Numbered from the stretch's first letter, positions 1,521 through 45,131 are shown. The stretch is 46,751 nt of DNA from Patescibacteria group bacterium (GCA_022563755.1 JADFMT010000001.1:1-46751); one strand, 5' to 3'. The notes: a model not told the origin generated them from the sequence alone. Made by a program: numbers and translations.

Positions 1521-2531
1521 TTGGTATTTTCTGAACACAAAAAAATAATTCTTAGCGTTATGTTAGCTCTTGGTATCGTAGGGAGCGGTGTTTGGTATGT
1601 ATATAAAAATTCACGTATAAAACCGGAGGGCTTGCCAAAAGTTATTGCAGGCACCGCGGCAGAACCAAAAAACATAGCCCAAGATTCTGACGGCGACGGC
1701 CTAAAAGACTGGGAAGAACAGCTGTGGGGCACCGATCCGAATAATCCGGATACCGATGGCGACGGAACAACCGACAACGAAGAAATCCAGCTAGGCCGAA
1801 ATCCGTTAAAACCTGCGCCGAATGATGCTTTGACGGAAGCTTCATCAAAAACCGCCTCGGCAATCAATGGATCATCCGAAACCCTCACATTAACCGACAA
1901 AATGGCGAGATATCTCCTCTCTACCTATCTTCAAGAAAAAAATCTTGGCTTAGCATTTCCGGATCTAAAAAACCAAATCGTCTCCTCATTGACGCGTGAA
2001 CTCAAAAGCTACGAGGTATTTCCAGATAAATTTTCAAAAGAGAATATCATTATAAATCCTCAAAAATCTAGAAAAACCATTAGAGCTTATGCCAATGAAC
2101 TCGGAAGTATTATTAGCAACGAGCGAAATAAAAATCAGATTATAAAAAATGAATTGGAAACCCTCGCCGAGATCCTCAATCGAAAAGAAGCGCTTAGCGA
2201 GACAGAAACACCCCCTGCATTCCAAAAATACATACAGGCGTATGAAAATATCGTAAATCGGATGCAGAAACTTTCCGTTCCGGAAAACTACGCGCCGTAC
2301 CATCTTGCGCTTATGAATTCTTTCTTCCATTTAGCCCAAATTGACAAAAGATTGAATGCTTTCTTATTAGATCCGGCAGCCGGCATGAAGACAATCTATC
2401 AATATAATGATAAATCTGCGACCGTAGCCAAAATTCTAAATGCGATGAAAAATCAACTACGGCAAGATTATATCATCATTGCCCGCAAAGAATCAGGCTA
2501 TATTCTTATGCAAATGGCGGAAATACAATAA
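1521..2531 (+). CDS. TM-anchored exported protein with thrombospondin type-3-like Ca-binding repeats; function unknown
   Basis: 336-aa ORF with a TTG start. An N-terminal basic stretch plus one TM (KKIILSVMLALGIVGSGVWYVY) is followed by DSDGDGLKDWEE and DTDGDGTTDNEE (DxDxDG repeats), then a helical domain. An ATG at 1560 would truncate the TM, so TTG 1521 is preferred. Confidence 0.5.
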   Translation: MVFSEHKKIILSVMLALGIVGSGVWYVYKNSRIKPEGLPKVIAGTAAEPKNIAQDSDGDGLKDWEEQLWGTDPNNPDTDGDGTTDNEEIQLGRNPLKPAPNDALTEASSKTASAINGSSETLTLTDKMARYLLSTYLQEKNLGLAFPDLKNQIVSSLTRELKSYEVFPDKFSKENIIINPQKSRKTIRAYANELGSIISNERNKNQIIKNELETLAEILNRKEALSETETPPAFQKYIQAYENIVNRMQKLSVPENYAPYHLALMNSFFHLAQIDKRLNAFLLDPAAGMKTIYQYNDKSATVAKILNAMKNQLRQDYIIIARKESGYILMQMAEIQ

Positions 2532-2582
2532 ATGAACCTAATTGACCTAATAAAGAACCGATGACAAAAAATCCCAAATACG

Positions 2583-5306
2583 ATGTTTAAAAAACTCCAA
2601 AAGATTCTTGCACCCATTCTTATTGTGGCAGTGCTTACGCCATCCATTATGGTGCTAACCGTTCCCAGAAAAGCAGATGCTTTGTTTTTTGATGTTATCC
2701 AGGGCACGAAAGAAGCTTTTCTTGACACGATTGCGATTGTTATCGCAAGAACGCTTGTCCGTCAAATGTCGCAAAACATTATTACATGGATACGAAGCGG
2801 GTTTGATGGTAAACCGCTTTTTATCACCAACCCTCGCCGGTTTTTACAGCAAACCGCAGATATCGCAGTGGGCAGAGTACTGGACGACCAGCTTGGCCCA
2901 AATGCTAAATTTCTATGTAGTCCCTTTCGTATCAATGTTGTAATCGGGCTTTTATCATTCCGGCGTGTAGCTCCACCTGCATGTACGCTTTCGCAGATTG
3001 TTGATAATGTTGACCAGTTCTTCTCAGATTTCTCACAAGGCGGGTGGCCGGGGTTTCTTACCATTTCGTCTAACGTAAACAATAATGCAATAGGCTCGCT
3101 GCTAGTGCGGTTTGATGGATTGGCTCGGGCAGCTGCGCGCGCAACAGGAGAGAAACGAGACAGTATTTTGATAAATAAAGGCTTTATTTTGACAAGGTGT
3201 GTACGACGCGCCACACCTACTACTCAACAAGTTGATCCTTTTGGAGGAGTGGGAGGACAAGTTGACCCTTTTGGAGGAGTGGGAGGGCCAGGGGGAGCAA
3301 CTTCGGATACATGCATCGAAGAAGAACAAGTAACCCCCGGTGTTGCTATAGAAGATTCATTAGTCAATGTTTATGGGCAAGACTTCAGACAGCTGGGTGT
3401 TGCAGATGAAATCAACGAAATTATTGTCGCCTTGGTTCAGCAACTGCTTTTCGCTCCCGGCGGTCTTTTTGGCCCAAAAATACCACATCTTCCGAGCATT
3501 GACACACGATCCGCATTTCAACGGATAAAAGACAATCTGCTTCAAAGAATAAACGGGCTTTTGCCGCCTGAACGTGCATTTTTGAATATTCAGCGAACTG
3601 CCTCATCCACCTTTAGTACTCTTATCACAAACCTAGAAATACTCGAGACATGCAAATCCCAAAACCACACAACTAAAATTGAGAGCTTAACGGAAAGGGC
3701 AAAACCCTTTACAAAGAAGGCCGGGCGATCACGGCAAGTCATCGCAGAACTGGAAGAAATTGCAAGTCAAATCAGAGCGCTTGCAGAATTGGATCCGAAT
3801 GTTTCCGGGCTTGGACGGATGAGGCGAGAAATACAAACGTTTCTTCGAAAATTTGACGCCGTTGATGCGCTAAAAAGCGGTATTGCAGCCCTCGGAGACG
3901 TTATTAAAACCCTGAATGACCTGGCAAGTGATCCCGATGCCACAATCAATACAGATAAGCTGAACGCGATCGTAACAGAAATCCAAGCGCTCATCACGCT
4001 CATCGGCGATGACGCAACGCCCGGAACCTTGATCTATGAGATCGGTTTCCTCGCAGAGACACAAACACAGCCTGATCTCGATATCCTAGTATTAGAAGAG
4101 GTTAAACAAGACCTTCAGCGCTTCATTGGCAGCGTTGTATCTTCCGACTTTGAACCCTCTGATTTGGAAATACTCGTTCGCGATGTTCTTTTGCGCATTG
4201 GCGCTCTCAAGCAGGATATTCGAGAACTTGTGAACTCTAGCGTAAATCTCTCGGTTCTGGACCGGCTAAAACGAGTCCTGGAAGGAATTCTGGATGATAT
4301 TGCAACCAGAATTCTGAATTTAGATATTTCAGAAATAAATGCAGTGGTTGGAGATATTGAACTTCTTATCGATAAGATTGAAAATTTTGACAGCCTGGTA
4401 GCAGGAGTTAGCGATAAACCCAAGCCTGAAAATATAATATTTGCAGAAATTGAAAAAGATATCGGAAACCTGATTGCAAAAATCCAGCAAGCATCAGCTA
4501 TTGATATAGTATTCCTTCAAAACGCGGGTAACGTGATAACGGACCAAGCAGGAAGACTCCAGGGGGAGGCAGATATCGCAGAAGCCCAGAAGGATTTAGA
4601 CATAGTACGCGGTGAGGTCTGCCCGCGCATTCGAGCCACCTTTGATGAAGCTCGGCGTAACAGGGATTGCACGGGCATAATAACGACCGACAGAGATGAT
4701 GAAGGAAACGTTATAAGCAGGGACATCGAATGGCCGTATGGAGAGCCAACCTCAACCTGTCCACAAACAAGAGCAGAGGCCGCCGCAGCGGCAGCGGAGC
4801 GGGAGAAAAAAAGAAGAGATGATGATACTAACGGAAATGGAAACGGGAATGGGGACACAAATGGGAACGGAAATGGCGTAGGCAGTATTTGTCTCGTGTA
4901 CGATACGCTGGTTCTGATGTCTAACGGCACGTATAAAGTTATACAAGACATAGAAGTTGGGGATAGGGTTAAAGGGTTTGATATTAATACAGGGAAAGCG
5001 GTAAATACTACGGTAATCGATACCTTAAAAGACCACCCGAGAAATGACTATTATGTCATCAACAACGAATTGAATATTACCAATGATCACCCTGTAGCTT
5101 TGTTAGAAAAGAATTCCATTGTATGGAGAAGAACAGATGAATTGCAAATCGGGGATAAAATAAAATCCATCTCAGGCATTATTGAGGTAAAAAGTATAGA
5201 GATATCGCGCACCCAAGCGACCACTGCAAACCTGTACACCGAATTAGGAAACTTCATCGCTCAAGGCAAGAACGGCGGCATTTATGTGGTAAAGAGCGAT
5301 TATTAA
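2583..5306 (+). CDS. Large (907 aa) exported/surface protein: N-terminal signal anchor, long helical middle, C-terminal Hint (intein-like) autoprocessing domain
   Basis: Long ORF with an N-terminal hydrophobic segment (ILAPILIVAVLTPSIMVLTV). The middle is helical and rich in Leu/Ile/Asp/Glu. A Gly/Asn linker precedes CLVYDTLVLMSNG..., ITNDH (TxxH) and NFIAQG...IYVVK-SDY. See findings. Confidence 0.7.
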   Translation: MFKKLQKILAPILIVAVLTPSIMVLTVPRKADALFFDVIQGTKEAFLDTIAIVIARTLVRQMSQNIITWIRSGFDGKPLFITNPRRFLQQTADIAVGRVLDDQLGPNAKFLCSPFRINVVIGLLSFRRVAPPACTLSQIVDNVDQFFSDFSQGGWPGFLTISSNVNNNAIGSLLVRFDGLARAAARATGEKRDSILINKGFILTRCVRRATPTTQQVDPFGGVGGQVDPFGGVGGPGGATSDTCIEEEQVTPGVAIEDSLVNVYGQDFRQLGVADEINEIIVALVQQLLFAPGGLFGPKIPHLPSIDTRSAFQRIKDNLLQRINGLLPPERAFLNIQRTASSTFSTLITNLEILETCKSQNHTTKIESLTERAKPFTKKAGRSRQVIAELEEIASQIRALAELDPNVSGLGRMRREIQTFLRKFDAVDALKSGIAALGDVIKTLNDLASDPDATINTDKLNAIVTEIQALITLIGDDATPGTLIYEIGFLAETQTQPDLDILVLEEVKQDLQRFIGSVVSSDFEPSDLEILVRDVLLRIGALKQDIRELVNSSVNLSVLDRLKRVLEGILDDIATRILNLDISEINAVVGDIELLIDKIENFDSLVAGVSDKPKPENIIFAEIEKDIGNLIAKIQQASAIDIVFLQNAGNVITDQAGRLQGEADIAEAQKDLDIVRGEVCPRIRATFDEARRNRDCTGIITTDRDDEGNVISRDIEWPYGEPTSTCPQTRAEAAAAAAEREKKRRDDDTNGNGNGNGDTNGNGNGVGSICLVYDTLVLMSNGTYKVIQDIEVGDRVKGFDINTGKAVNTTVIDTLKDHPRNDYYVINNELNITNDHPVALLEKNSIVWRRTDELQIGDKIKSISGIIEVKSIEISRTQATTANLYTELGNFIAQGKNGGIYVVKSDY
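3228..3287 (+). repeat. In-frame 30-bp tandem duplication (2 copies, 28/30 identical) encoding QVDPFGGVGG twice
   Basis: caagttgatccttttggaggagtgggagga (3228-3257) is followed directly by caagttgacccttttggaggagtgggaggg (3258-3287). Both differences are synonymous (gat/gac, gga/ggg). Confidence 0.95.
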
Positions 5307-5316
5307 TTTCTTTCAA

Positions 5317-7500
5317 ATGAAGAAAAAAGATTCAAAAATAAAACCCCTGAAAGCTATTTTAGTGCTGGTTTTGATATTTGGATTTTTGTTTCTTTTGTTG
5401 CCGCGCGGAGTAATTCAGGCTCAGCAAACGCTAGACGATCTTTGCGTTATTGGCATATTATCCATCGGCAATCTTTTAACGGGTATTTGTATCGCAAAAG
5501 GGATAGCATGGGTGGGATACATTTTGCTGTTTCTTATCTCGAAAATTCTTAGTGTAACGGGAATATTTTTCAATGAGGTCATTGAGATCGTATTGAAACC
5601 GGACATGTATAACATCCCTGCTCTTAAAAATACCTGGGCCACATCCCGCGATACCGCAAATCTATTTTTCATTTTCGTCCTTTTAACAATTGCGATCGCT
5701 ACCATTTTACGGATTGAAACGTACGGGGCAAAAAAGCTTCTGCCAAAACTTATTATCGCAGCGCTCTTCATTAACTTTTCTTTTTTGATCACTCAATATG
5801 TTATTCTCTCATCAAACTTGCTTGCAGGTTTCTTTCTTGACGGCTTAAAGGGGCAAGGTGGTGTAGCGGCGTCAATATCAGAAAAAGTTCTAAAGGATGT
5901 AAATCCTCTCAATATCTTCAAACTCCCTGCGGTCAGCAACGTTGAGGAAGCGGAAAAAGAGATAGAAAGATTAAAACAAAGAAGAAAGGCTGTTTCAGGG
6001 GTCGGGGGAGTTCCCGGTCAGCGTAAGCTCGTGTGCACAACTACATCTGGAACTATAACAGTGGCGGAATGTCTAGACAGTATAGATAAAAAAATAACGA
6101 CACTTGAGACTACAAAAAAGGGCCTCAGCGAACAAGGCGCCTCGCCTAGCACTCTGAATATATTCTTAGGTGTTTTTGTAACTACGGTTTTTGGTATGAT
6201 TATTTTCTTTGTAGCCGCCTTTGTCTTTGCTGCCGGGGCGATTTTACTGCTTACGCGCATGGTTATTTTGTGGATCCTGCTTGTGCTCTCCCCCTTCGCT
6301 TTTCTCTTTATGATCCTTCCAAAAACTGCCTCCTACGCCCAAAAATGGTGGGACACGCTCTTTAGTCAGGCGCTTTTCCCCGTAGCCTTTTATTTCTTAT
6401 TTTCACTTGCGCTTACCATGCTTGGTTCGAGGAAGATCAAAGAAACCTATGGGCAAATATCCCCCGGGAACGAGCTTAATATTGCAACAATGATACTCTT
6501 CTTTTCAACCCAGATTATACTCTTCATTCTGGCTCTTGTTGTTGCCAAAGAACTGAGCGCGATGGGTTCCGGAGCAATGATAAGCGGGGGTAAAGCCGCG
6601 GCAAAATGGGCGCGAGGCGCAACGGTTGAAGCGTCGTCCAGAATATCCAAACGGGCGCTGGGCGGAGCATCTGCTGCTGCTCTAAAATCCCGGCCTGCAG
6701 AATGGATCTCAAAAATACCGCTTGCGCGCCAAGCCTTGCGGCCGCTTGCCGCTGGTGCGCGGGTCGCTGAAAAACAAGCATCAGAGGATGCGAAACGTCT
6801 TTCGGGTCTTTCGATCCGCGAACAATCAAGGCTTATCCCAACGCTTAGCGCGCGCGCTCAAGCATTTGCGTTTCGCGACATGAAAGACCAAGACGCAGGA
6901 AAACTGATGAAAGAGATGAGCTCGGGCGAGCGACAACGATTTGGCAAACGAATGAAGGGCTTTAACGAGGAGCTTGGTAGAAAAGCTGCAGGCGCCACGG
7001 GAAGCATGAAAGAAGCAACAACGATTCTATACAATGCGCCCTCCAAACCGCCGCCAAAAAATACTACGCAAGGGGAAGAATATCAACAAAACCTTAACAA
7101 ACTTTTCAAAGAGCTGAAAGCTGATCAGCTCGGAGGTTTCGATCTAAAAAAAGAGTTAGAAGATAAAGCTTTAAGTGAGTACACCCCTGAAGCTTTATTC
7201 AAGGGGCTTAATAAGGAAAATATTTCAGGAATTACGAAAAATATCAAAAATGCTGATGCCTTGAGAGATATGGTACGAAAAGAAGCCAAAGATCACGACA
7301 TGATGGACGAAAATGAAAACATTAAATTCGATGAGTTTACACGGCATATACGCGGTGGCGCATATCGCAATAATTCGTTGGCAGAATACTTCCAAAGCAC
7401 GCCGGCAAGAAGATTCTATGGGGGTGGAGGCATTACAGAGGAAAAAAAAGAGGAAAAAAAATCGCCAGAAGAACCAGGCTCTTATCACTTCACTGATTAA
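5317..7500 (+). CDS. Polytopic membrane protein, VirB6/TrbL-like, with long charged cytoplasmic tail
   Basis: 727-aa ORF starting 11 nt after the previous stop. Many TM helices fall in two blocks (aa ~15-180 and ~285-420), separated by a soluble loop, followed by a ~300-aa Lys/Glu/Ala-rich tail. Position and topology match VirB6/TrbL-type T4SS channel proteins. No sharp motif was recognised. Confidence 0.45.
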   Translation: MKKKDSKIKPLKAILVLVLIFGFLFLLLPRGVIQAQQTLDDLCVIGILSIGNLLTGICIAKGIAWVGYILLFLISKILSVTGIFFNEVIEIVLKPDMYNIPALKNTWATSRDTANLFFIFVLLTIAIATILRIETYGAKKLLPKLIIAALFINFSFLITQYVILSSNLLAGFFLDGLKGQGGVAASISEKVLKDVNPLNIFKLPAVSNVEEAEKEIERLKQRRKAVSGVGGVPGQRKLVCTTTSGTITVAECLDSIDKKITTLETTKKGLSEQGASPSTLNIFLGVFVTTVFGMIIFFVAAFVFAAGAILLLTRMVILWILLVLSPFAFLFMILPKTASYAQKWWDTLFSQALFPVAFYFLFSLALTMLGSRKIKETYGQISPGNELNIATMILFFSTQIILFILALVVAKELSAMGSGAMISGGKAAAKWARGATVEASSRISKRALGGASAAALKSRPAEWISKIPLARQALRPLAAGARVAEKQASEDAKRLSGLSIREQSRLIPTLSARAQAFAFRDMKDQDAGKLMKEMSSGERQRFGKRMKGFNEELGRKAAGATGSMKEATTILYNAPSKPPPKNTTQGEEYQQNLNKLFKELKADQLGGFDLKKELEDKALSEYTPEALFKGLNKENISGITKNIKNADALRDMVRKEAKDHDMMDENENIKFDEFTRHIRGGAYRNNSLAEYFQSTPARRFYGGGGITEEKKEEKKSPEEPGSYHFTD

Positions 7501-7517
7501 AGGAATATAATATATAA

Positions 7518-8060
7518 ATGCCCACGCAAAACGAAATTCAGCAAAAATTTAAAGAATTGCCGCAAGATCTGCGGGATGCGATCTTTAGTGTAGATACAGC
7601 CGACATTATTCAGGCAATTGCCAAACGACATAACCTGCCCATTGATAAAATGGGGGAGCTTGCAGACGAGGTCGGGCTTTTGATACTGGGGACAACACGC
7701 CCCAAAGATTTCGTAAGTCATTTAGCGCGCAGGCTTGACGCGGACATCGAGAAAGCAAGAAAAATTGCAGAAGAGGTAAATACTCAGATTTTTGCAAAAA
7801 TCAAAGAATCACTTAAAAAAGTGCATACGCTTGAGGAAGAGGAAATCATAAAAAAAGTAGAAGCACCAACGCCCCCAACAAAGCCAGAACCTAAAGAATT
7901 ACCTGTTAACCAGATGCAACCGAAAAAATCTCCGTTTGAAGAAAAATTGCAGGAGAAAATATTTACGACCCAGTCGCCCGTTCAAAAAGAGGTTGAGCAA
8001 GCAAAAAAGGAAAATAGATATCCAATGAAACAAGATCCTTATCGAGAATCAGTTGAATAA
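7518..8060 (+). CDS. Hypothetical soluble protein (helical N-domain, Pro/Lys/Glu-rich tail)
   Basis: 180-aa ORF inside the operon, ending 2 nt before the next start. No recognisable catalytic motif. Confidence 0.5.
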   Translation: MPTQNEIQQKFKELPQDLRDAIFSVDTADIIQAIAKRHNLPIDKMGELADEVGLLILGTTRPKDFVSHLARRLDADIEKARKIAEEVNTQIFAKIKESLKKVHTLEEEEIIKKVEAPTPPTKPEPKELPVNQMQPKKSPFEEKLQEKIFTTQSPVQKEVEQAKKENRYPMKQDPYRESVE

Positions 8061-8062
8061 TT

Positions 8063-8473
8063 ATGCGCCAATTTACGGTTCCACAATTTATTGACGTAGA
8101 GGATAAAATTTTTGGGCCTCTAAGCCTAAAGCAGTTCATTTATCTTTTGGGCGGGGCAGCGGCCCTATTTATTCTTTTTGTATTCTTGCCATTTTTCCTG
8201 TTTATCCTCCTTGCGATTCCGGTTGGTGGGTTTGCTGCAGCGCTTGCGTTTTATAAAGTAAACAATCAACCGTTCATTAAAGTCATTGCAAATGCCATAT
8301 CGTATTATACGGGTTCGCGCCTCTATATATGGAGAAAGCGCGAGGCAAAGAAAAAGAAAATCGAGATAACAAAACCAGCGCCCACCACTCTTAAGATGGG
8401 GGTTCCAAAAATAACGGAAAGCAGATTAAAAGACATCGCTTGGAGTTTAGATGTTAAAGAAACGATAAAATAA
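8063..8473 (+). CDS. PrgI-like small 2-TM T4SS protein (VirB3 analogue)
   Basis: The N-terminus MRQFTVPQFIDVEDKIFGPLSLKQFIYLLGG is followed by two TM helices and a basic tail. This is the pattern of the PrgI family encoded next to VirB4 in Gram-positive-type T4SS loci. Confidence 0.5.
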   Translation: MRQFTVPQFIDVEDKIFGPLSLKQFIYLLGGAAALFILFVFLPFFLFILLAIPVGGFAAALAFYKVNNQPFIKVIANAISYYTGSRLYIWRKREAKKKKIEITKPAPTTLKMGVPKITESRLKDIAWSLDVKETIK

Positions 8474-8477
8474 TTTT

Positions 8478-9143
8478 ATGCCCAAACCATCAAAAGGAAA
8501 ATCAGCACAAGACTTTGTCCCCATTCGAGAAATCCGAGATGGCGTGGTTATTACAGAGGATAACCGACTGCATGCGGTCCTGATGGCCTCATCTCTTAAT
8601 TTTGCCCTGCGTTCAGCCGACGAACAGGAAGCCATTACGTCTCAATATCAAAACTTTTTAAATGCCTTGGATTTTTCGGTGCAAATCCTGATCCAGTCCC
8701 GGCGTTTAAATATCGAGCCCTATCTCGAAACATTGAGGGAGGCTGAAAAACAACAAACCAATGAACTCTTGAAAATTCAAACTCGTGAATATATTGAATT
8801 TGTCCGAGTATTCGTAGAGAACACGAAAATTGTGAGTCGGCACTTTTATATTGTGGTAACCTTCGTACCCGCCTTTCTCGGGGCAGGGGGGAAGGGGATT
8901 GCAGGAATATTTGGTGGACTTTTAGGTGGCAAGAAAAAGTCAGCCAGAGGACCGGCAGAGGATGAAAAGTTTGAAGAATACAAGGCTCAACTTTTTCAAC
9001 GGACCGAAACCGTCTCGGGCACGCTTTCTTCAACCGGCGTTCGGACCGTGCCGCTTGAGACGCAGGAATTAATAGAGCTTTTCTATGGATTCTTTAATCC
9101 CGGGGAATTAGAGCGCGGGCATGCGCCACAAATACGTAGTTAA
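8478..9143 (+). CDS. T4SS-associated protein resembling the extreme N-terminal module of Gram-positive VirB4 ATPases
   Basis: The motif run QDFVPIREIRDGVVITEDNRLHAVLMASSLNFALRSADEQEAITSQYQNFLNAL resembles, from memory, the first ~100 aa of Tn916 Orf16 / ConE-class VirB4 proteins. It lies directly upstream of the VirB4 ATPase ORF. Confidence 0.4.
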   Translation: MPKPSKGKSAQDFVPIREIRDGVVITEDNRLHAVLMASSLNFALRSADEQEAITSQYQNFLNALDFSVQILIQSRRLNIEPYLETLREAEKQQTNELLKIQTREYIEFVRVFVENTKIVSRHFYIVVTFVPAFLGAGGKGIAGIFGGLLGGKKKSARGPAEDEKFEEYKAQLFQRTETVSGTLSSTGVRTVPLETQELIELFYGFFNPGELERGHAPQIRS

Positions 9144-9230
9144 CTTTAACTGGTTTAGCTTATTAAAAAATATGACAAAAATTAAAGATACTAAAAAGCT
9201 ACAAGCTAATCAGCTAAAAAGCTAAATCAT

Positions 9231-11066
9231 ATGGCTTTACTAGACTTCTTAAAACCGAAAAAGAAGGACGAGGAGGAAAAGATTATTGCGATCGCGCCCG
9301 AGCAGATTTACGAAGCAGCGGTTTTGGAATTGAAAGATATCATCGCTCCCTCTGCTCTTGAGATCAATACCAGTTACATAAAACTGGGCGAGAAAATCGC
9401 GCGCACCTTATTCATTTTTTCCTATCCCAAATTTTTATCCATCAACTGGTTCAGCCCGATCATTAATCTGGACAAGGTTTTTGACATCTCGCTCTTTATC
9501 CACCCGATTGATACCGCAACCGTCCTCAGGCAGCTCCAAAAAAAAGTGGCGGAAGTACAATCTCAAATTCACACGCGCCAGGAAAAAGGAATGGTCCGCG
9601 ATCCCATGCTCGATAGTGCCTACCAAAATTTAGAAGAGCTTCGCGATAAACTTCAACAAGCCCAGGAAAAGCTTTTTTCATTTGGTTTTTATATCACCAT
9701 CTATGCGGACTCGCTGGAAGAACTGAACCGAGAAGAATCTGAAATTCGCTCCATGCTGGAATCTAAACTGGTCTATGCGAAACCGGCTCTTTTTCAACAG
9801 CTGGAAGGGCTGCTTTCCAACTTTCCTTTGGGTACCGACAAGCTCGCAATTAATACCCGATTGAATTCATCGCCAATCTCAAGCATTTTTCCATTTGTTT
9901 CGTTTGATCTTACCTCAAACAAAGGAATTCTTTACGGAATTAATCGCCACAACAACGGCTTGGTGCTTTTTGACCGCTACAGCCTTGAGAATTACAATTC
10001 TGTTCTTTTTGCAAAAAGCGGCTCGGGCAAAAGCTATACGATGAAACTAGAAATCCTCCGCTCTTTAATGTTTGATGTCGACGTGATTATTATTGATCCG
10101 GAGCGCGAATACGAATATCTTGCAGAAGCGGTTGACGGACGCTACTTTAATATTTCTTTGACCTCGCAACATCACATTAATCCATTTGACTTGCCGACTC
10201 CACGCGAAGATGAGGATCCGGCTGACGTGCTTCGCTCAAACATTATCAACCTGGTTGGCCTTTTTCGGATTATGCTCGGTGGTTTAACGCCTGAGGAGGA
10301 TTCTATTTTGGACCGGGCGATTTCCGAAACGTATGCCTCGCGCGACATAACGCCGGATGCGGATTTTACAACAAAGATACCGCCCATCTTGTCAGACCTG
10401 GACCTGGTCCTTGCCAACATGGAAGGAGGGGAATCGCTTGCCCAGCGGCTCCGCAAATACACACAAGGCACATGGGCAGGATTTATTAACCAGCCCACCA
10501 ATGTGGATATTAATAAAAAGTTGATTGTTTTCTCGGTTCGCGATATGGAGGACGAACTGCGGCCCATCGCCATGTATCTCATCATTCACTATATTTGGAA
10601 TGCGATCAGGAAAAACATTAAAAAGCGGCTTTTAGTGATTGATGAGGCGTGGTGGATTATGAAGCATGAGGACGGCGCATCGTTTTTATTCGGAATTGCC
10701 AAGCGCGCGCGCAAATACTTTTTGGGCGTGGCTACGATTACCCAAGACGTGGACGACTTCCTGCGCTCGCCCTACGGGATTCCCATTATCACAAACTCTT
10801 CCATGCAGCTCCTCTTAAAACAATCGCCTACCACGATCGATGTAGTGAAAAAAGCCTTTAATTTAACCGACGAGGAGAAATTTCTTCTTTTGGAATCCGA
10901 TGTGGGCGAGGGGATGTTTTTTGCAGGACTTAAGCATGTTGCGATAAAAATTATCAGCTCGTACACCGAAGATCAAATTATCACCTCTGACCCGCATCAA
11001 TTATTAGCCATAAAGAAGGCAAAACAAGAGTTTGCCCAAACCAATAAAAAAGAAAATGGCGAGTGA
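9231..11066 (+). CDS. VirB4/TrbE-family T4SS ATPase (C-terminal two thirds)
   Basis: 611 aa. Contains IIAPSALEINTSYIKLGEKIARTLFIFSYP (VirB4 middle block), Walker A AKSGSGKSYTMK, Walker B LLVIDEAWW and a conserved ITQ motif (GVATITQDVDDF). Confidence 0.8.
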   Translation: MALLDFLKPKKKDEEEKIIAIAPEQIYEAAVLELKDIIAPSALEINTSYIKLGEKIARTLFIFSYPKFLSINWFSPIINLDKVFDISLFIHPIDTATVLRQLQKKVAEVQSQIHTRQEKGMVRDPMLDSAYQNLEELRDKLQQAQEKLFSFGFYITIYADSLEELNREESEIRSMLESKLVYAKPALFQQLEGLLSNFPLGTDKLAINTRLNSSPISSIFPFVSFDLTSNKGILYGINRHNNGLVLFDRYSLENYNSVLFAKSGSGKSYTMKLEILRSLMFDVDVIIIDPEREYEYLAEAVDGRYFNISLTSQHHINPFDLPTPREDEDPADVLRSNIINLVGLFRIMLGGLTPEEDSILDRAISETYASRDITPDADFTTKIPPILSDLDLVLANMEGGESLAQRLRKYTQGTWAGFINQPTNVDINKKLIVFSVRDMEDELRPIAMYLIIHYIWNAIRKNIKKRLLVIDEAWWIMKHEDGASFLFGIAKRARKYFLGVATITQDVDDFLRSPYGIPIITNSSMQLLLKQSPTTIDVVKKAFNLTDEEKFLLLESDVGEGMFFAGLKHVAIKIISSYTEDQIITSDPHQLLAIKKAKQEFAQTNKKENGE

Positions 11067-11463
11067 AGAAGAGCGCGCTTTCGCGCTTCAAGAGATACGG
11101 AGAGGAGAACCGCAAAAAGAAGACACTGCGAGCAAAGACCGGCAAGCACCAGCCGGACCGCGCATTAATCCTGTTGAGGGGGGAATGATGATGGCATTTG
11201 CGATGCTGAACGACGGCTTGGATTACTTAATCGTTGGATCAATTCCGCTTGTTGGCGATCTCTTAGACGGTATAACGTGGTTTACAATTTCCATGTGGGT
11301 GTGGGTGCGCGGACTTAAAAGACCGCCTTTATTTCTTGGGCTTGGCGCAATCGAATTAATTCCTTTTGGCGATCTTATCCCGACCTATACTCTTATGGTT
11401 ATTGGAATCATAATTTACAATAATCCTCGTTTTGGAAAACTTAGAAAGTTTGCCCATGCTTAA
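11056..11463 (+). CDS. Small membrane protein, function unknown
   Basis: The ORF track gives 11032. ATG 11056 (MASEEERAF...) overlaps the VirB4 stop by only 11 nt. The C-terminal half has 3 hydrophobic helices (LIVGSIPLVGDLL, WFTISMWVWV, LMVIGIIIY). Confidence 0.5.
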   Translation: MASEEERAFALQEIRRGEPQKEDTASKDRQAPAGPRINPVEGGMMMAFAMLNDGLDYLIVGSIPLVGDLLDGITWFTISMWVWVRGLKRPPLFLGLGAIELIPFGDLIPTYTLMVIGIIIYNNPRFGKLRKFAHA

Positions 11464-12463
11464 GATATTTTCCATTTTAATAATAGTCATCCTCGCAGGG
11501 TTTCTGCAACCTCACGCTATGCACGCTCAATTTCTTTCTAACCAAGATGTTGGTTCGGTTTTTATTGAACTCGTTCAGCAATTTTCAGGACCAGTAAAAG
11601 AATTTCAAGGTCCCAATGAAAACTATGTGGCCTGGATAAGAAGCTCGAGCATTGATGTAAATCGCGCGACCATCACCTGGATTCATAATGGAGATACGGT
11701 TGCAAGCGGACTGGGAGTAAAAACCTATCAATTTAGAACCGGCGATGTTGGCGAGCGCGAGTCACTGCGCGCGATCGTTGTAGCAAATGGCGGCAGGCGC
11801 CTTGAAGCATCTCAAGTCTTTCGTATAAATAATGTTGATCTCTTGTGGACGGCAAATACAACCGTTCCGGCCTGGTACAAAGGTAAGGCCTTGGCATCTC
11901 CCCGCTCAATTATTACGGTGAGTGCTTTCCCGGAGATTATGAGAAATGGCTCAAAGACGCCGTCCTCTCAACTCATCTATCGCTGGTCATTAGATGATGA
12001 TTTTATTCCTGAAGAATCCGGGGCAGGAAGAAGAAATTTTTCTTTCCGGGCAGACCTCATTCCGGGCACCGAGCACGAAATAACCATAACTGTATCCGAT
12101 CTGAGTGGTACGCGCGGGGCTCAAAAAACCATTGTGATTCCGGTAGCTGGGCCTAAAGTTCTTTTTTATGAAGAGCGTCCCCTTGAGGGCACGGTGATAG
12201 GTGCGGCCTTAACGAATTTTATTTTGCCTGCCGGCACCCAAAGCACATTTAGAGCGGTTCCATTCTTTTTCACTCGAGGCGCTCCATTATCCTATAAATG
12301 GTTCATTGACGGAGAGGCCGCCCAGGAAGAGGGGCTGCCCGATATTCTTCGCCTTACCGCAGCCATCGGTTCGGGGGGGTTGGTTTCCATATCCACAACG
12401 ATTAATAATGTTCGAAATATTTTGCAGCGAATAAGCGATAGTTTTACCATCGATGTTCAATAA
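11456..12463 (+). CDS. Secreted protein with three ~100-aa internal beta-rich repeats
   Basis: ATG 11456 gives a clean signal peptide MLKIFSILIIVILAGFLQPHAMHA-Q and overlaps the upstream stop (ATGCTTAA). Recurring anchors are ITWIHNGDTVASG, LIYRWSLDDDFIPEESG and LSYKWFIDGEAAQEEG. Confidence 0.55.
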   Translation: MLKIFSILIIVILAGFLQPHAMHAQFLSNQDVGSVFIELVQQFSGPVKEFQGPNENYVAWIRSSSIDVNRATITWIHNGDTVASGLGVKTYQFRTGDVGERESLRAIVVANGGRRLEASQVFRINNVDLLWTANTTVPAWYKGKALASPRSIITVSAFPEIMRNGSKTPSSQLIYRWSLDDDFIPEESGAGRRNFSFRADLIPGTEHEITITVSDLSGTRGAQKTIVIPVAGPKVLFYEERPLEGTVIGAALTNFILPAGTQSTFRAVPFFFTRGAPLSYKWFIDGEAAQEEGLPDILRLTAAIGSGGLVSISTTINNVRNILQRISDSFTIDVQ

Positions 12464-13031
12464 GATTTTCATTATAGTGCTTTTAGTATCGAGCTTTATG
12501 CTGGCAATACATTTTGCTGATGCTGCCCAAGGAATAGTTAAGCAATTTGAAGGGTTTGGGAAAGAACCCGGACAAGCTTTTATCAATTTTCTTGTTTGGC
12601 TTTTCCCGCTCATGCTGGCATCGGCTATGGTTTTAGCGGTTCTTATGATTATTTTCGCTGGGTTTCAATGGATGGCAGGCGCTGTCTCACCTCCTCAAGT
12701 AGAAGAGGCAAAAAAGAAGATTTGGGCTGCGGTTATTGGACTTACGCTTGCTTTAACTTCCTTTTTAATCCTTAAGACCATTAATCCGGATTTAGTGAGC
12801 TTGCGAAATCCCAGAACTCTAGTCGTGCCTAAGCCACCCGAAATTCCTGAAACTCCTGTCACGCAAACTCCATTAGAATGTTATCAGGGTCCGGGCGGAT
12901 TTTTCAACAACCGACAAGATTGTGTACTAGCATTGCCCGCTGGACCAATACGGCAAGCTTGTATAGGAATGGAAGAGAGTCTCCCTGGAGCATTAGAATG
13001 CCTTTGTACACCCACAGGAGCATGCATATAA
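12453..13031 (+). CDS. VirB2/TrbC-like T4SS pilin with Pro-rich linker and 6-Cys C-terminal extension
   Basis: A signal-like N-terminus (IFIIVLLVSSFMLAIHFADA) is followed by two TM helices separated by a short polar loop (LMLASAMVLAVLMIIFAGFQWMAG ... KKKIWAAVIGLTLALTSFLILKTINP), as in T4SS pilins. The start overlaps the previous stop by 11 nt. Confidence 0.55.
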   Translation: MFNKIFIIVLLVSSFMLAIHFADAAQGIVKQFEGFGKEPGQAFINFLVWLFPLMLASAMVLAVLMIIFAGFQWMAGAVSPPQVEEAKKKIWAAVIGLTLALTSFLILKTINPDLVSLRNPRTLVVPKPPEIPETPVTQTPLECYQGPGGFFNNRQDCVLALPAGPIRQACIGMEESLPGALECLCTPTGACI

Positions 13032-13055
13032 TATGAATCCCGTTAGAAGTCTTTG

Positions 13056-13085
13056 GCAGAAAAAAATTTCTTGATTTTTTTCTGC
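13056..13085 (+). terminator. A/T-rich hairpin after the pilin gene (weak intrinsic terminator candidate)
   Basis: gcagaaaaaaa (13056-13066) and tttttttctgc (13075-13085) form a perfect 11-bp stem with an 8-nt loop. Confidence 0.3.
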
Positions 13086-13101
13086 TTGGAAAAACATAGT
13101 G

Positions 13102-13107
13102 TATAAT
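13102..13107 (+). promoter_or_regulatory. TATAAT -10 hexamer (context agtgTATAAT) ahead of the 13167 gene
   Basis: tataat at 13102-13107, 60 nt upstream of the ATG. The same agtgtataat context is seen at the 28894 promoter. No convincing -35. Confidence 0.3.
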
Positions 13108-13166
13108 TAAATCATGCAACCTCTACAAACATATTTTTTGTTCAATAAACACAGACTTCTAACAGG

Positions 13167-14357
13167 ATGAATAAACCACTTGCAATAGGACTTATAATAT
13201 TTTTTATCTTAGTGATTGCCGTTGGGGCCATCTGGTTGGTAGTTCGCCCAGTGCCGGAAATTCCTGCGCCCGAAAGGCCAATTCGCCGTTTTCCGTTTGG
13301 TATTTTTGGCCCGACTGAAGAATTGCCGCCCCCAGAAGTTGAGGCACCTATACTTGAACCAGGAAAACGAGCCTTAACCTTGCTTTCAGCGGAAGCAATA
13401 AGTGGTTTTGCCATTTTGTCTGCCAAGGAAAATTCCACGTCCACTCCTGCCAGCGTCCGATTCATTGAGAAAAGAACTGGCCATGTGTTTGATATTGGAG
13501 GGCAAGGAGAAAATAAAATTCGCATCTCAAACACTACGATTCCTAAAATCTTTGAGGTTAATTGGTCGCCGGATGCCTCTAAAGCCATCTTAAAATATTT
13601 TGAAGGCGAAAATTTGCGTATCGTATCAGCGGTATTTGAGGCCACTTCCACCACCGGAACGATCCTGCCTACAAATATTCTCTCAAGCACTTACGCGCCT
13701 CACCAAGAAAGAATTCTCTATCTTCTCCTTGTAGCGGATGGCGCGCGAACCATTGCTGCAGACCCTGATAATACCGGCCAAAATGAAATTCTTTTCTCAC
13801 CCTTTCAAGAATTTAACATTACCTGGCCGGAAAGAAACACGCTTTCGTATCTGAGTCGTCCTTCCGGAATCGCTCCTGGGTTTCTGTTTGCATATAACCT
13901 GCGGGCCGGTGTCTTTAACAAAGTGATCGGGAATATTTTTGGCCTTGAAGTGCGCTGGTCAAAGGACGGTAAAAATTTACTTTTCTCCGGATACAATCAA
14001 AACACGCGCATCCCTCAGTTATTCCTTTACGATACCCGGGGTAAAATTTCCAAAAATCTGCAAATAAATACTTTCGCGCCCAAATGCGCCTTTTCTGAAA
14101 AGGATGAAAATATAATCTATTGCGCGATTGACGCAAATCTGCCTCCGGCACTCTATCCGGACGAATGGCTGCAAGGCGCAATTTCGACCACGGATTCTCT
14201 TTGGAAAATTAATCTGGAATCTGGAGAGAAGAATCTGCTTGATACCGAAAGAAAATTTTTCGATATAGATCAAATAAGCATTTCAGACGATGATGAATTT
14301 CTCTATTTTGTTGATAAAAAAAATGGCTCCCTATGGAGCCTCAAGTTGAGTGATTAA
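13167..14357 (+). CDS. TM-anchored periplasmic/extracytoplasmic beta-propeller (TolB/PD40-repeat-like) protein
   Basis: An N-terminal anchor IGLIIFFILVIAVGAIWLVV and a Pro-rich linker are followed by PD40-like signatures WSPDASKAIL, WSKDGKNLLFSG and ISDDDEFLYFVD. Confidence 0.5.
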   Translation: MNKPLAIGLIIFFILVIAVGAIWLVVRPVPEIPAPERPIRRFPFGIFGPTEELPPPEVEAPILEPGKRALTLLSAEAISGFAILSAKENSTSTPASVRFIEKRTGHVFDIGGQGENKIRISNTTIPKIFEVNWSPDASKAILKYFEGENLRIVSAVFEATSTTGTILPTNILSSTYAPHQERILYLLLVADGARTIAADPDNTGQNEILFSPFQEFNITWPERNTLSYLSRPSGIAPGFLFAYNLRAGVFNKVIGNIFGLEVRWSKDGKNLLFSGYNQNTRIPQLFLYDTRGKISKNLQINTFAPKCAFSEKDENIIYCAIDANLPPALYPDEWLQGAISTTDSLWKINLESGEKNLLDTERKFFDIDQISISDDDEFLYFVDKKNGSLWSLKLSD

Positions 14358-14389: not shown

Positions 14390-14848
14390 TTATAAAGGCT
14401 TAATCACTACTTTTCTTTCCGCGCCCTCGCCCGTACTTTGAGTTGCAATGTCTGGATACTCGGTAAGGGTGGCATGAACCACTCTTCGCTCATATGCGCT
14501 CATCGGTTGCATGGCAACCTCTTTTTTAAAATATCTCACGCGCTGGGCAGAAAGACGAGCTAAGTCTTTTACCTCCTCTATTTTCTGTTTTTGATAGTCA
14601 TTCACATCAACAAAAAATTTGGGAACCTCACTCTGATCCTTCAGCGTGTATTCGGTTATTCTTCGGATAATATGGTTGAGGGCCCGTAAACGCTCGCCAT
14701 TTTCTCCAATAAGCAAGCCTCCGTCTTTTGTGTGGATGCTAAAATATACGTTTTCCGGATATTCAATAAAATCAACTGAGCCTGAACATCCCAATTTTTC
14801 AATTAGGGTTTGAATCATTTCTTGAATTTTCTTGATCTCTTTTTCCAT
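14390..14848 (-). CDS. jag: Jag/KhpB-type KH + R3H RNA-binding protein
   Basis: The C-terminal R3H signature is MQPMSAYERRVVHATLTEYPDIATQSTGEGAERKVVIKP, and it sits immediately downstream of yidC. The annotated start overlaps the yidC 3' end by 50 nt; an internal Met at 14818 would reduce the overlap to 20 nt. Confidence 0.75.
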   Translation of the reverse strand: MEKEIKKIQEMIQTLIEKLGCSGSVDFIEYPENVYFSIHTKDGGLLIGENGERLRALNHIIRRITEYTLKDQSEVPKFFVDVNDYQKQKIEEVKDLARLSAQRVRYFKKEVAMQPMSAYERRVVHATLTEYPDIATQSTGEGAERKVVIKPL

Positions 14849-15578
14849 AAAGTATTTTTGCCTTTCGTCTTACGATTCCTTCGTGCAGTATACTAAACAT
14901 ATTAATCGTTGTCCAATAAAGACTCACGGCCGCAGGAAAACGAAGCGCAATAAAAAAGATGAGCGCCGGCATCATATAGGTCATCTGAAATGTTAACATT
15001 TGACTGAAGTCGCCCGGCCGGCGATCTTTTTTATTTGCGCCCTTACGGGAGGATGATTTAGAAACCTGAGCCCACTTCATCTGCACAAATTGTGAAAGAC
15101 CGGTTAGTACTGCCAAAAAAATACTTGGCTGAGTTAACTCAATGAGCCCCAAAAATTTCGTATGGATAATCTCCGGTAAGGAAACAAAAGAATAAAGATA
15201 TTTAGCTCCGGATGAAATATCATCAATAAAAACAAAATAGAGAGCGATCAGAATCGGAAGCTGAATAAAAAGCATTAAAATGCCGGAGAACGGATTAATG
15301 CCGTGCTTTTTGTAAAGCTCCATGGTCAGACGAGCTTGTTCTTGCCGATCTTTATGGTCTTCTTTGATTTTTCTTAGCTCCGGTTCAACGAATTTCATCT
15401 TTTGTTGAGTTTGAACCGAGCGGTGGGTTAATGGAAACAGCGCCAAACGCACAACGAGCGTGAGGATGATCACGCTCAGTCCTAAATCATGAAACGGTAA
15501 GACGTCGGTTAGAAAAACTAACGCATTGAACAAAGGGCGAAAAAAGATCTCGTTGAATAGAGTGCCAAACCAACTCAT
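14799..15578 (-). CDS. yidC: YidC/Oxa1-family membrane protein insertase (short form)
   Basis: 259 aa and multi-TM, with conserved stretches GINPFSGILMLFIQLPILIALYFVF and AAVSLYWTTINMFSILHEGIV. Classical rnpA-yidC-jag order. Confidence 0.85.
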   Translation of the reverse strand: MSWFGTLFNEIFFRPLFNALVFLTDVLPFHDLGLSVIILTLVVRLALFPLTHRSVQTQQKMKFVEPELRKIKEDHKDRQEQARLTMELYKKHGINPFSGILMLFIQLPILIALYFVFIDDISSGAKYLYSFVSLPEIIHTKFLGLIELTQPSIFLAVLTGLSQFVQMKWAQVSKSSSRKGANKKDRRPGDFSQMLTFQMTYMMPALIFFIALRFPAAVSLYWTTINMFSILHEGIVRRKAKILYGKRDQENSRNDSNPN

Positions 15579-15907
15579 ATGGATTTAAAAAATTTATTTA
15601 ATTTCTTTTTTAACTCTTGAAAAGAAAGGTTTTCTACTCCTTTTTGAAAGGAAATTACAATATCGTAGGATGATTTTACGTGGGGCAATAAAGAATGTAT
15701 AATTTCTCGTGCCCTGCGTCGAAGTTTATTGCGCACGACTGCGCGTTTATCTATCTTTTTAGAGACAAGAATGGCAATCTTAGAATCATGCCTTCTTGAT
15801 GCAATAAAATACATTTTTATCTCTGAATTTATGATTTTCTTTCCGCGGCGAATAACGTTGGGAATCCATGTCCGACTGGATGGGTTAATTTTTTTACTTA
15901 AAACCAT
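15575..15907 (-). CDS. rnpA: RNase P protein component
   Basis: 110 aa and basic, with the RNR-type motif AVVRNKLRRRAREI. Its start codon overlaps the rpmH stop (TAATG), and its stop overlaps the yidC start by 4 nt. Confidence 0.8.
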   Translation of the reverse strand: MVLSKKINPSSRTWIPNVIRRGKKIINSEIKMYFIASRRHDSKIAILVSKKIDKRAVVRNKLRRRAREIIHSLLPHVKSSYDIVISFQKGVENLSFQELKKKLNKFFKSI

Positions 15908-16041
15908 TAAACAGTTAGCTTCTTTCTGCCTTTACGGCGTCTTCTTGTAAGCACCCTTCCTCCGGAAGTCTTTTTACGCTTTAAAAATCCATGCGTTCGC
16001 TTTCTTTTGCGCCGTTTAGGTTGATAGGTTCTTTTGGGCAT
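15907..16041 (-). CDS. rpmH: 50S ribosomal protein L34 (not in the ORF track, below size cutoff)
   Basis: Hand translation of the minus strand gives [44 protein letters not shown] (44 aa, 135 nt including TAA), the canonical L34 sequence pattern, in the canonical position between dnaA and rnpA. Confidence 0.9.
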
Positions 16042-16227
16042 ATGAATTCTTTATTCTACAACACATTTAATGGTTTAACAATATTAACAAACCGTCCCCA
16101 GATTATTAACATAATAGCAAGGTTTAGTAAAAATTAAAGTTATTTTAGAGTGCGCTATACTTTAATATAATAGACATTATCATAAATAATAATTATCTTG
16201 TTACTTGCTAATCAAAAACACATACCT

Positions 16228-17583: not shown

Positions 17584-17778
17584 CCTGTTTACAACTTAAG
17601 GAAAAAGTGTGTTTATTTTTTAAAGAATTAAAACGGTAGTAAATTATTCACACTTTATTCAGAAGAAATTAAAAAATAAAATTTAGAAATCACTTTCGTT
17701 TGTAATAAAAAAATGGTTTTCCACTTATCCACAAACTAATCTACAACTACTTTATAAATTATTAATATATATATTCGT
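17584..17778. promoter_or_regulatory. Candidate oriC (dnaA-dnaN spacer with DnaA boxes and AT-rich unwinding stretch)
   Basis: Perfect TTATCCACA at 17725-17733 and one-mismatch TTATTCACA at 17644-17652, in the same orientation. An almost pure A/T run at 17741-17775 sits just upstream of dnaN. Confidence 0.55.
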
Positions 17779-27601: not shown

Positions 27602-27625
27602 AAGTGCCTAAATTTTAAATAGGTT

Positions 27626-39033: not shown

Positions 39034-39134
39034 TTATGTCCCGTAATGCAATGTCAAAAGATAATCCCGCCCAGTATAAAATAACACTATGTATATAAAA
39101 CATTATTTAAGTCATTGTTTATTAATTATTCCTA

Positions 39135-39186
39135 CTGCGGATTACCCCGTAAGGCAATTGCAATTGCTTTACGGGGATTATCGCAG
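39135..39186 (+). promoter_or_regulatory. 52-nt imperfect palindrome/hairpin just upstream of rtcB
   Basis: ctgcg-gatta-ccccgtaaggcaattg | caattgctttacgggg-attat-cgcag. 5 + 16 paired positions (one G-U in the upper stem) flank a symmetric 4x4 AUUA/AUUA internal loop closed by one further G-U pair. The apex is gcaattgcaattgc. Confidence 0.6.
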
Positions 39187-39212
39187 GCGGATTTGATATT
39201 GCTTTACGAGGT

Positions 39213-44159: not shown

Positions 44160-44170
44160 ACAAAAAATAC
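44140..44170 (+). repeat. 31-bp direct repeat copy 1 (tRNA-Lys 3' 20 nt + 11 nt downstream), att-like
   Basis: gagtcctggtgggcggaccaacaaaaaatac, identical to 44387-44417. Confidence 0.95.
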
Positions 44171-45122: not shown

Positions 45123-45131
45123 AAGGAGGCG

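Follow-up and report, generated by a model that had tools for sequence, protein, structure and literature searches.

An origin-adjacent type IV secretion-like cassette of Paceibacteria with a distinct set of accessory proteins

Few machines have been shown to be indispensable for epibiotic life in the Patescibacteria, a very large and mostly uncultured bacterial radiation, and their type IV secretion system (T4SS) is among them. Here we describe the form it takes in a cassette of eleven genes at positions 1521 to 14357 of a contig from a Patescibacteria group bacterium (GCA_022563755.1, JADFMT010000001.1:1-46751). The window is this whole stretch, very probably a complete 46,751-bp contig of a metagenome-assembled genome (MAG) of the Paceibacteria, and every absence reported for it, including that of a coupling ATPase, applies to this one contig. 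The closest described systems were published between 2023 and 2025. According to Wang et al. (2023, Cell, PMC10633639), the T4SS cluster of Ca. Southlakia epibionticum (SEML1_0006-0019) lies near the genome start, is essential by transposon sequencing (Tn-seq), and contains pilins with no recognisable relaxase or coupling protein. Quinonero-Coronel et al. (2025, Microb Genom, PMC12102498) report VirB4 in 2,417 of 3,035 Patescibacteria genomes, as a monophyletic group nested in MPF_FATA whose neighbours are TrsD, PrgI/VirB3, VirB6 and VirB2-like genes. In the Paceibacteria and Microgenomatia, the same survey places the T4SS near dnaA, dnaN, rnpA, rpmH and ksgA, a position that the authors read as a gene-dosage effect. 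A FEMS review of 2025 gives the same account. The system, its missing relaxase, its monoderm ancestry and its proximity to dnaA and the origin are already in the literature, and our locus adds nothing to them. Its sole new lead is a defined, Paceibacteria-specific accessory set within the eleven-gene cassette, for which we provide domain calls and conserved motifs.

We consider it highly probable that the cassette is the Paceibacteria version of the Patescibacteria-clade T4SS, that is, a vertically inherited, chromosomally fixed descendant of MPF_FATA systems without the DNA-processing half of conjugation. What carries this reading was observed directly: the gene content, the domain assignments, the order of the eleven genes by the replication origin and the co-divergence of VirB4 with DnaA. 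The open reading frame (ORF) list of the window comprised 142 ORFs of at least 60 aa, 48 of which were judged likely genes and taken into Pfam scans. Eleven co-directional plus-strand ORFs are packed into the cassette (Table 1), separated, in order, by 51, 10, 17, 2, 4, 87, −11, −8, −11 and 135 nt, so that most of the genes abut or overlap. A first-pass annotation, made by a model from the sequence alone, had pointed out these tiny or negative spacers, and the ORF list bears this out. Gene calls made independently on two sibling metagenome contigs, whose VirB4 is identical to that of the window, have the same starts as the ORFs at 11056 (135 aa) and 11456 (335 aa). A signal or transmembrane (TM) segment was predicted in 8 of the 11 products. 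Promoter and terminator scans of the window did not define the operon boundaries.

We next turn to conservation. A VirB4 scan of a genome collection yielded 55 loci, which were searched by tblastn and iterative hidden Markov models (HMMs). All but one of these loci belong to Patescibacteria, with best-segment identities to the window VirB4 of 59-86% except for L053 (39%); the single non-Patescibacteria locus is from Ruminococcus (26%). Their labels are mostly Paceibacteria/Parcubacteria, including Niyogibacteria (84%), Tagabacteria (78-80%) and Wolfe-, Kaiser-, Vogel-, Giovannoni- and Nomurabacteria (~70%), and several carry the submitters' label 'Saccharibacteria'. These nearest-neighbour identities place the window VirB4, as far as they go, in the Patescibacteria clade. 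Gene order was counted in the 30 Paceibacteria loci with enough flank, and the distance to dnaA in 33 loci. For ten of the eleven cassette genes, the order is shared by 28-30 of these loci; the exception, g11056, is too divergent for strict thresholds. Homologues of g11056 were found directly downstream of VirB4 in more than 30 loci by jackhmmer (13/30 in a stricter run). Downstream of VirB4, dnaA follows at a distance of 4.3-9.9 kb (median 5.6 kb) in 30 of the 33 loci; in the window it starts 5.1 kb after VirB4. The first-pass annotation had proposed a survey of whether this gene order recurs beside the origin in related genomes, and these counts answer that it does.

Synteny extends beyond the cassette through jag-yidC-rnpA-dnaA-dnaN-PBP1A in ~30 species-level Paceibacteria genomes. 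In the window, Pfam matches established Jag (KH/R3H), YidC, RnpA, DnaA and DnaN beside the cassette, an L34 ORF identified rpmH (15907-16041, minus strand), and a perfect DnaA box is present at 17725 in the dnaA-dnaN spacer, all in line with the earlier placement of the cassette in core chromosome beside jag-yidC-rnpA-rpmH-dnaA. Upstream synteny stops at g1521, with a speE-like gene shared only by the sibling strain, and we therefore take g1521 as the start of the cassette; a sibling contig (99% identical) adds upstream only ksgA and a major facilitator superfamily (MFS)/spermidine-synthase gene. Look-ups of the exact protein sequences of the window's first and last genes, aimed at mobility genes past its ends, gave no match. 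VirB4 and DnaA identities to the window are correlated across loci (r = 0.82). Together, the kept order, the kept context and this co-divergence form a pattern of vertical inheritance and not that of an integrative and conjugative element (ICE).

Pfam scans of the 48 likely-gene ORFs returned no family match for a relaxase, a VirD4/TraG coupling protein, a VirB11 or an integrase, and NCBIfam likewise gave no relaxase or coupling-protein match in the ORFs scanned. The sole T2SSE-superfamily ATPase in the window, a 554-aa protein at 25937-27601, is of the PilB/GspE type with an MshEN domain and is not a VirB11. The repeat search gave no convincing att-like direct repeats flanking the cassette, only short imperfect ones, and we found no compositional break at the cassette. 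An ordinary ICE whose relaxase, coupling protein and integrase lie beyond the contig, or are too divergent to be recognised, would leave the same gaps, and VirB4 is indeed of the conjugative CD1110/MPF_FATA type on a MAG of which one contig was covered. Moreover, most Patescibacteria genomes in the survey (PMC12102498) carry VirD4-like genes, as a rule at a large distance from virB4, and a few carry relaxases (103 of 3,035). Against an ICE, the survey counts just 15 relaxase genes near virB4 among those 3,035 genomes, and the cassette keeps its position and order by jag-yidC-rnpA-dnaA-dnaN in ~30 species at VirB4 identities of 59-86% while diverging along with DnaA. Thus, neither a relaxase, coupling protein, integrase or att repeat in the scanned part of the contig nor a variable insertion site among ~30 species was found, and we regard an ICE as highly improbable. 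The earlier suggestion of a domesticated chromosomal T4SS instead of a conjugative element is supported by the absence of mobility genes and att repeats, by the fixed context in ~30 genomes and by the agreement of the published accounts (PMC10633639; PMC12102498).

The core of the machine was recognised by family profiles. The PrgI-like protein matched PF12666 (3.5e-11, 43.9 bits against a Pfam cut-off of 27) and the VirB6/TrbL-like protein matched PF04610 (3.5e-10, 40.5 bits against a cut-off of 25.9); the latter has ~8 hydrophobic segments in residues 10-410, followed by ~300 hydrophilic C-terminal residues. The ATPase matched the NCBIfam model NF045971 (conju_CD1110) at profile positions 183-733 (3.4e-114, 382.7 bits against a cut-off of 325) and P-loop_TraG (PF19044) at 1.4e-24, with the VirB4 C-terminal domain 4ag5 as its best PDB sequence match (3e-40; TrwK, 6e-6). 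Its Walker A (SGSGKSYT) and Walker B (LLVIDEAWW) motifs are intact. The first-pass calls for these three proteins hold above curated cut-offs, and the Walker motifs listed there are confirmed. Judged by these profiles, the 611-aa ORF is the central and C-terminal ATPase part of a VirB4 of the monoderm MPF_FATA/CD1110 type.

VirB4's N-terminal domain appears to have an ORF of its own. The ORF at 8478-9143, unclassified in the first-pass annotation, matched NF045975 (positions 100-233, 3.3e-8), NF045971 (positions 2-120, 2.1e-7), NF041427 TrsD (4.3e-5) and Pfam TraC_F_IV (positions 18-174), all below the curated cut-offs, and the identical protein in sibling contigs carries a precomputed PF26593 TraC-like annotation. 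A search of PDB with its family profile gave no sequence match. Positions 2-120 of the VirB4 profile in this ORF and 183-733 in the ATPase ORF together amount to nearly a full VirB4. On these profile matches, it is TrsD, the VirB4 N-terminal domain as a product of its own, and the order PrgI-TrsD-VirB4 therefore reads as VirB3, VirB4 N-domain and VirB4 ATPase. We rejected a frameshifted pseudogene as the origin of the split: nearly all Paceibacteria loci keep TrsD as an ORF apart from VirB4, and published work describes the split as well. TrsD and VirB4 form a single ORF in one Patescibacteria locus (L040:2860-5241, 793 aa) and in the Ruminococcus locus (L056, 797 aa).

Table 1 Features of the T4SS cassette and the adjoining origin region. 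Loci, number of the 30 Paceibacteria loci in which the gene was found.
Feature	Position	Strand	Loci	Assignment or content
g1521	1521-2531	+	29	N-terminal membrane anchor, TSP3-type Ca-binding repeats, helical C-terminal domain; first cassette gene
g2583, 907 aa	2583-5306	+	29	Signal/anchor helix, conserved Cys-containing helical N-domain, lineage-specific coiled coil, Gly/Asn linker, C-terminal Hint module
VirB6/TrbL-like, extended, polytopic, 727 aa	5317-7500	+	30	PF04610
g7518, 180 aa, orphan	7518-8060	+	28	No family match; conserved N-domain and tail motifs
PrgI/VirB3-like small membrane protein	8063-8473	+	29	PF12666
TrsD-like, VirB4 N-terminal domain as own ORF	8478-9143	+		NF045975, NF045971, NF041427, TraC_F_IV, below cut-offs
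VirB4-family ATPase, 611 aa	9231-11066	+		NF045971, PF19044, PDB 4ag5
g11056, 135 aa, orphan	11056-11463	+	13 (stricter run)	No family match; homologues just 3' of VirB4
g11456, 335 aa	11456-12463	+	29	Signal peptide, three tandem Ig-like repeats
VirB2-like 'T4SS_pilin' protein, 192 aa	12453-13031	+		PF18895 (below cut-off), NF045849
g13167, 396 aa	13167-14357	+	29	N-terminal membrane anchor and TolB-like beta-propeller
Origin-region core genes	14390-18879			jag (−), yidC (−), rnpA (−), rpmH (−), dnaA (+), dnaN (+)

The VirB2-like protein consists of a signal peptide, a two-helix hydrophobic hairpin (~residues 45-110) and a Cys-rich, variable C-terminal tail of 72 aa; conservation is confined to residues 31-120, the hairpin. 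The earlier pilin call stood for the family, in that 29 of 31 positional homologues match PF18895 (best 1.2e-11), and fell marginally short for the window protein by itself (scored below). The protein also matched NF045849 (Mbov_0395 pilin-like, 2.9e-5) and, weakly, TrbC PF04956 (0.046); the name 'pilin' derives from homology alone. From nt 12869 on (12869-13031, about the last 55 codons), the tail cannot be aligned with positions 13636-13816 of L001, a sibling contig ~99% identical elsewhere; this comparison involves one scaffold, and the difference could mean either that the surface tail is hypervariable or that L001 was wrongly joined at its scaffold gap.

At the pilin position of other loci (L015, L016, L028, L034, L035, L048, L049 and others), VirB2-like hairpins lie within ORFs of 440-906 aa. 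Among the 31 positional homologues, two match Peptidase_M15_4, two Extensin-like_C and one NlpC/P60, and others match FN3-like, He_PIG or CBM domains. From these domain matches, the large ORFs look like pilin-hydrolase or pilin-adhesin fusions, which might be a source of the missing VirB1-like function.

Six further genes had been listed as having no assignable function. For g1521, g2583, g11456 and g13167 we can now offer domain-level calls based on profile matches, whereas g7518 and g11056 remain conserved orphans; with TrsD also classified, the statement that at least six partners were unassignable was too pessimistic. The product of g1521, which has a single TM segment (residues 9-27), matched PF18884 TSP3_bac above the Pfam cut-off (1.3e-11), and its family profile matched the Bap surface protein 7c7u in PDB (4.4e-6, repeats only). 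The family profile of g11456 matched the Ig-like domains of T4 Hoc (3shs, 5.4e-5), and each of its Ig-like repeats has one conserved Trp (W75, W177 and W282); it is probably an exported surface or wall-spanning component. For g13167, which has a single TM segment (residues 7-25) and always lies between the cassette and jag, the family profile matched TolB structures (6pnv, 2.7e-7, and 11 others).

The N-domain of g2583 (~260 aa, about residues 40-300) defines a widespread orphan family with 2,598 cluster representatives (50% identity) at E ≤ 1e-10. Its C-terminal parts are highly variable, and the distal modules of relatives include Ig-like, PKD, InlK_D3 and Rib-type domains. Profile searches of PDB with g2583 gave no sequence match. 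Two AlphaFold2 (AF2) models of the N-domain, built from alignments of 50 and 114 sequences, reached a predicted local distance difference test (pLDDT) of 64 and 67 and a predicted TM-score (pTM) of 0.36, and Foldseek of both against PDB returned nothing at E < 1. A role as a VirB5/TrbJ-like tip protein or minor pilin was considered and found unsupported: 7 of 50 relatives weakly match DUF4141 and TrbJ at their N-termini (first ~70 residues), but hhalign against VirB5 of A. tumefaciens pTiC58 gave nothing, the models are of medium confidence, and the Foldseek and PDB profile searches were empty.

In this lineage, the distal part of g2583 comprises a coiled coil, a GNGNGN (Gly/Asn) linker and a Hint module (residues 770-907, nt 4890-5306), right after which the protein ends. 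The module matched PF01079 (1.9e-4), PT-HINT and intein_Nterm, all below curated cut-offs; homologous Hint modules retain its Cys770 together with an invariant TNDHP block. This layout resembles that of Hedgehog proteins and predicts cleavage at 769|770. The module is missing from the g2583 homologues of the closest relatives; elsewhere, it occurs as a stand-alone 129-aa protein and within giant proteins of 2,780 and 3,399 aa. We also observed an in-frame, perfect 30-nt tandem duplication within g2583 (3227-3286, encoding QVDPFGGVGG twice). At this repeat, sibling contig L001 has an indel (~4036-4330), and the gene is called there as a truncated product of 581 aa, which may reflect a frameshift or an assembly error.

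Neither orphan has a match in Pfam or NCBIfam; for g7518 this extends to PDB and also holds at the family level, and for g11056 to a family-level Pfam scan. The g7518 protein has no predicted TM segment and consists of a conserved N-domain of ~105 aa, a variable Pro/Glu-rich linker and a disordered Pro/Glu-rich tail with two conserved short motifs, PFExKLxEKVF and YP..DPY[R/K/H]E, in which D173, P174, Y175 and E177 are invariant in two independent family alignments. By their conservation pattern, the tail motifs look like a docking peptide. The g11056 protein has a hydrophilic N-terminus and hydrophobic C-terminal segments.

The last gene is set apart by the longest spacer of the cassette. The 135 nt 5' of g13167 hold a promoter-like TTGATT...TGTATAAT, and g13167 may have its own promoter and be transcribed separately. 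The spacer between the pilin gene and g13167 is bracketed by an imperfect inverted repeat of 24 nt (13032-13055/13150-13173, 83% complementary). In L001, the 5' end of g13167 looks duplicated, but this is an artefact of a scaffold N-gap.

The matches in the rest of the window are to housekeeping genes (among them PBP1A, tyrS, ruvABC, yebC, the PilB-type ATPase, tsaE, polA, holA, uvrB, a Mur ligase and archease/RtcB), and an Rfam scan of the window found tRNA only. The PilB/GspE-type ATPase gene (T2SSE plus MshEN) adjoins a 360-aa orphan (25937-28708, minus strand) ~12 kb from the cassette and belongs to a type IV pilus or type II secretion system (T2SS) apparatus. At 33577-34716 (minus strand), two neighbouring ORFs of 247 aa (profile positions 4-234) and 118 aa (positions 257-339) make up a broken DUF2817 (succinylglutamate desuccinylase/aspartoacylase-like) gene, probably a frameshift or a pseudogene. 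The archease-RtcB RNA-ligase pair at 38629-40652, present in a reduced genome, may be relevant to RNA processing, a theme brought up for Patescibacteria. Finally, 44084-46751 holds tRNA-Lys(CTT), an orphan of 205 aa, a ParB_N/HTH_ParB protein (45132-46043) and, as far as the end of the contig, small orphans. Neither ParA nor an integrase was seen in this stretch, which could represent the chromosomal ParB or the edge of an integrated element.

To consider how the parts may work together, we drew on the established structure and function of T4SSs (R388, pKM101) for the steps involving TrsD, VirB4, PrgI, VirB6 and the pilin. By this analogy, VirB4 would act as a two-polypeptide ATPase, with its N-terminal domain from TrsD and its ATPase from the 611-aa protein, that docks at the membrane via PrgI/VirB3 and the extended VirB6. 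ATP-driven extraction would then draw the VirB2-like hairpin from the membrane into an extracellular filament or channel, with the variable Cys-rich tail pointing outward. Predicted localisation suggests that the TSP3 protein, g2583, the triple Ig-like g11456 and the TolB-like g13167 could form the wall-spanning or host-contact part; these four exported or anchored partners might stand in for the undetected VirB8, VirB1 and adhesin components. On the same grounds, g7518 could be an adaptor acting through its conserved tail motifs.

Several observations count against this picture of a T4SS with a VirB2-type filament and a dedicated set of partners. The window pilin-like protein scored just under the PF18895 cut-off (1.6e-5, 25.3 bits against 26.6). 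Its relatives carry N-terminal extensions of 0-650 aa and C-terminal extensions of 0-300 aa, unlike canonical VirB2, and a filament of the tightly packed VirB2 type would hardly accommodate them. Because its closest named relatives are the 'pilin-like' proteins of Mycoplasma ICEs (NCBIfam), the VirB2-like protein may be a membrane component and not a subunit of a pilus. Neither a VirB8-like (NTF2) nor a VirB1-like protein was detected in the cassette, the roles proposed for the accessory proteins come solely from predicted localisation, and g13167, although conserved in position, may be transcribed as a unit of its own and have no connection with the T4SS.

Under the reading of a vertically inherited Patescibacteria-clade T4SS, the most likely role, by analogy, would be that of a contact-dependent conduit between epibiont and host for the exchange of macromolecules, whether import of host material or export of effectors. 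We favor such a conduit because the homologous cluster of Ca. Southlakia epibionticum, the one organism for which such a requirement is known, is essential for epibiotic growth independently of ComEC, and because tubular structures that extend towards the host were described at the interface of a cultivated Minisyncoccota/Patescibacteriota parasite and its host, for which host RNA uptake was proposed (bioRxiv 10.64898/2026.06.21.733656).

The direction of transport can be argued either way. In an export system, the host, a bacterium or an archaeon, would be injected with proteins such as hydrolases or toxins, and the role of the pilin-like protein would be only that of a membrane or channel component. 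Wang et al. (PMC10633639) offer this option, some pilin homologues are fused to Peptidase_M15_4, NlpC/P60 or Extensin-like_C, and g2583 relatives carry variable distal modules, here a Hint module of the kind found in giant multi-domain proteins. However, the cassette has no coupling protein to recruit substrates, no identifiable effector genes adjoin it, and the hydrolase and Hint modules reside on proteins with Sec-type signals, for which the T4SS channel is not needed. None of our data separates export from import, and we consider dedicated effector export possible but rather unlikely.

Import could take the form of a competence-type T4SS like H. pylori ComB or archaeal Ced, with environmental or host DNA serving as a nucleotide source or for transformation. 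The contig without a detected relaxase or coupling protein suits such a system, Patescibacteria lack nucleotide biosynthesis, the ABY1 T4SS is co-localised with comF, recG and radA (PMC12102498), and VirB4 weakly matched the CedB DNA-import model NF041017 (7.5e-15, 54.6 bits). That score is nevertheless far under the CedB cut-off of 700, and the conjugative CD1110 model fits far better. Profile scans of the window found no CedA, ComEC, VirB9 or VirB10 family, and no com genes adjoin the cassette in the window. In Ca. S. epibionticum, a comEC deletion mutant is viable and has lost competence while the T4SS is essential (2025 FEMS review, PMC12857230), which rules out ComEC-dependent uptake as the essential role there. 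We therefore judge a DNA-uptake machine improbable.

A more specific proposal, which we put forward with considerable doubt, is that the conduit has an extracellular architecture shared with no described T4SS. Six partners conserved across the class, without detectable homology to known T4SS subunits, would replace VirB8, VirB1 and adhesins, and the VirB2-like hairpin would be a modular carrier displaying fast-evolving host-recognition or wall-degrading domains, together forming a host-penetrating conduit for the uptake of host macromolecules. This proposal stems from the pilin tail that differs between strains 99% identical elsewhere, from pilin relatives fused to M15 or NlpC/P60 hydrolases, and from g2583, whose C-terminus in this lineage is a Hedgehog-style Hint module with the potential to cleave, and perhaps to ligate, the distal end of the protein. 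The motifs and domain calls of the cassette are possible targets for multimer modelling, cryo-electron tomography (cryo-ET) labelling and genetics in Paceibacteria.

We finally compared the cassette with known systems. Like H. pylori ComB and archaeal Ced, it is a T4SS-derived machine without a relaxase or coupling protein; unlike them, it has no linked CedA or ComEC and fits the CedB model poorly (54.6 bits against 700), and ComB is a diderm VirB2-10 system. The Mycoplasma ICE module (Mbov_0395 pilin-like, Mbov_0397 VirB4) provides named relatives, as seen in matches to NF045975 by the ATPase (5.9e-79) and TrsD (3.3e-8) and to NF045849 by the pilin-like protein (2.9e-5), but none of these scores reaches its equivalog cut-off, and in Mycoplasma the modules reside on mobile ICEs. 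With monoderm MPF_FATA systems (C. difficile CTn CD1110, pCF10 Prg/Pcf, pGO1 Trs), the cassette shares a conju_CD1110 VirB4, PrgI, a VirB6 homologue and the lack of an outer-membrane core (VirB7/9/10), and with pGO1 also the TrsD-like split N-domain. It differs from them in having no relaxase, type IV coupling protein (T4CP), PrgK-type hydrolase, PrgL-type VirB8 or PrgB adhesin, in having a VirB2-like protein, which MPF_FATA systems are said to lack, and in being fixed in the core chromosome instead of carried on mobile elements.

The closest resemblance is to the Patescibacteria-clade T4SS as portrayed in the published accounts: an MPF_FATA VirB4 with TrsD-like, PrgI/VirB3, VirB6 and PF18895 pilin neighbours, in a chromosomal cluster that has no relaxase or coupling protein and lies close to dnaA, dnaN, rnpA and rpmH. 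Within this clade, the pilins of the Saccharimonadia cluster (SEML1) number six in tandem and are accompanied by a lysozyme-like and an NTF2-like (VirB8-like) protein. In the Paceibacteria cassette, by contrast, there is a single pilin-like gene, variable in its tail, and neither a VirB1- nor a VirB8-like protein was detected. The cassette has instead a conserved set of six accessory partners that do not appear in the available excerpts of Wang et al. 2023 or Quinonero-Coronel et al. 2025, namely the TSP3 protein, g2583, g7518, g11056, the triple Ig-like protein and the TolB-like propeller.

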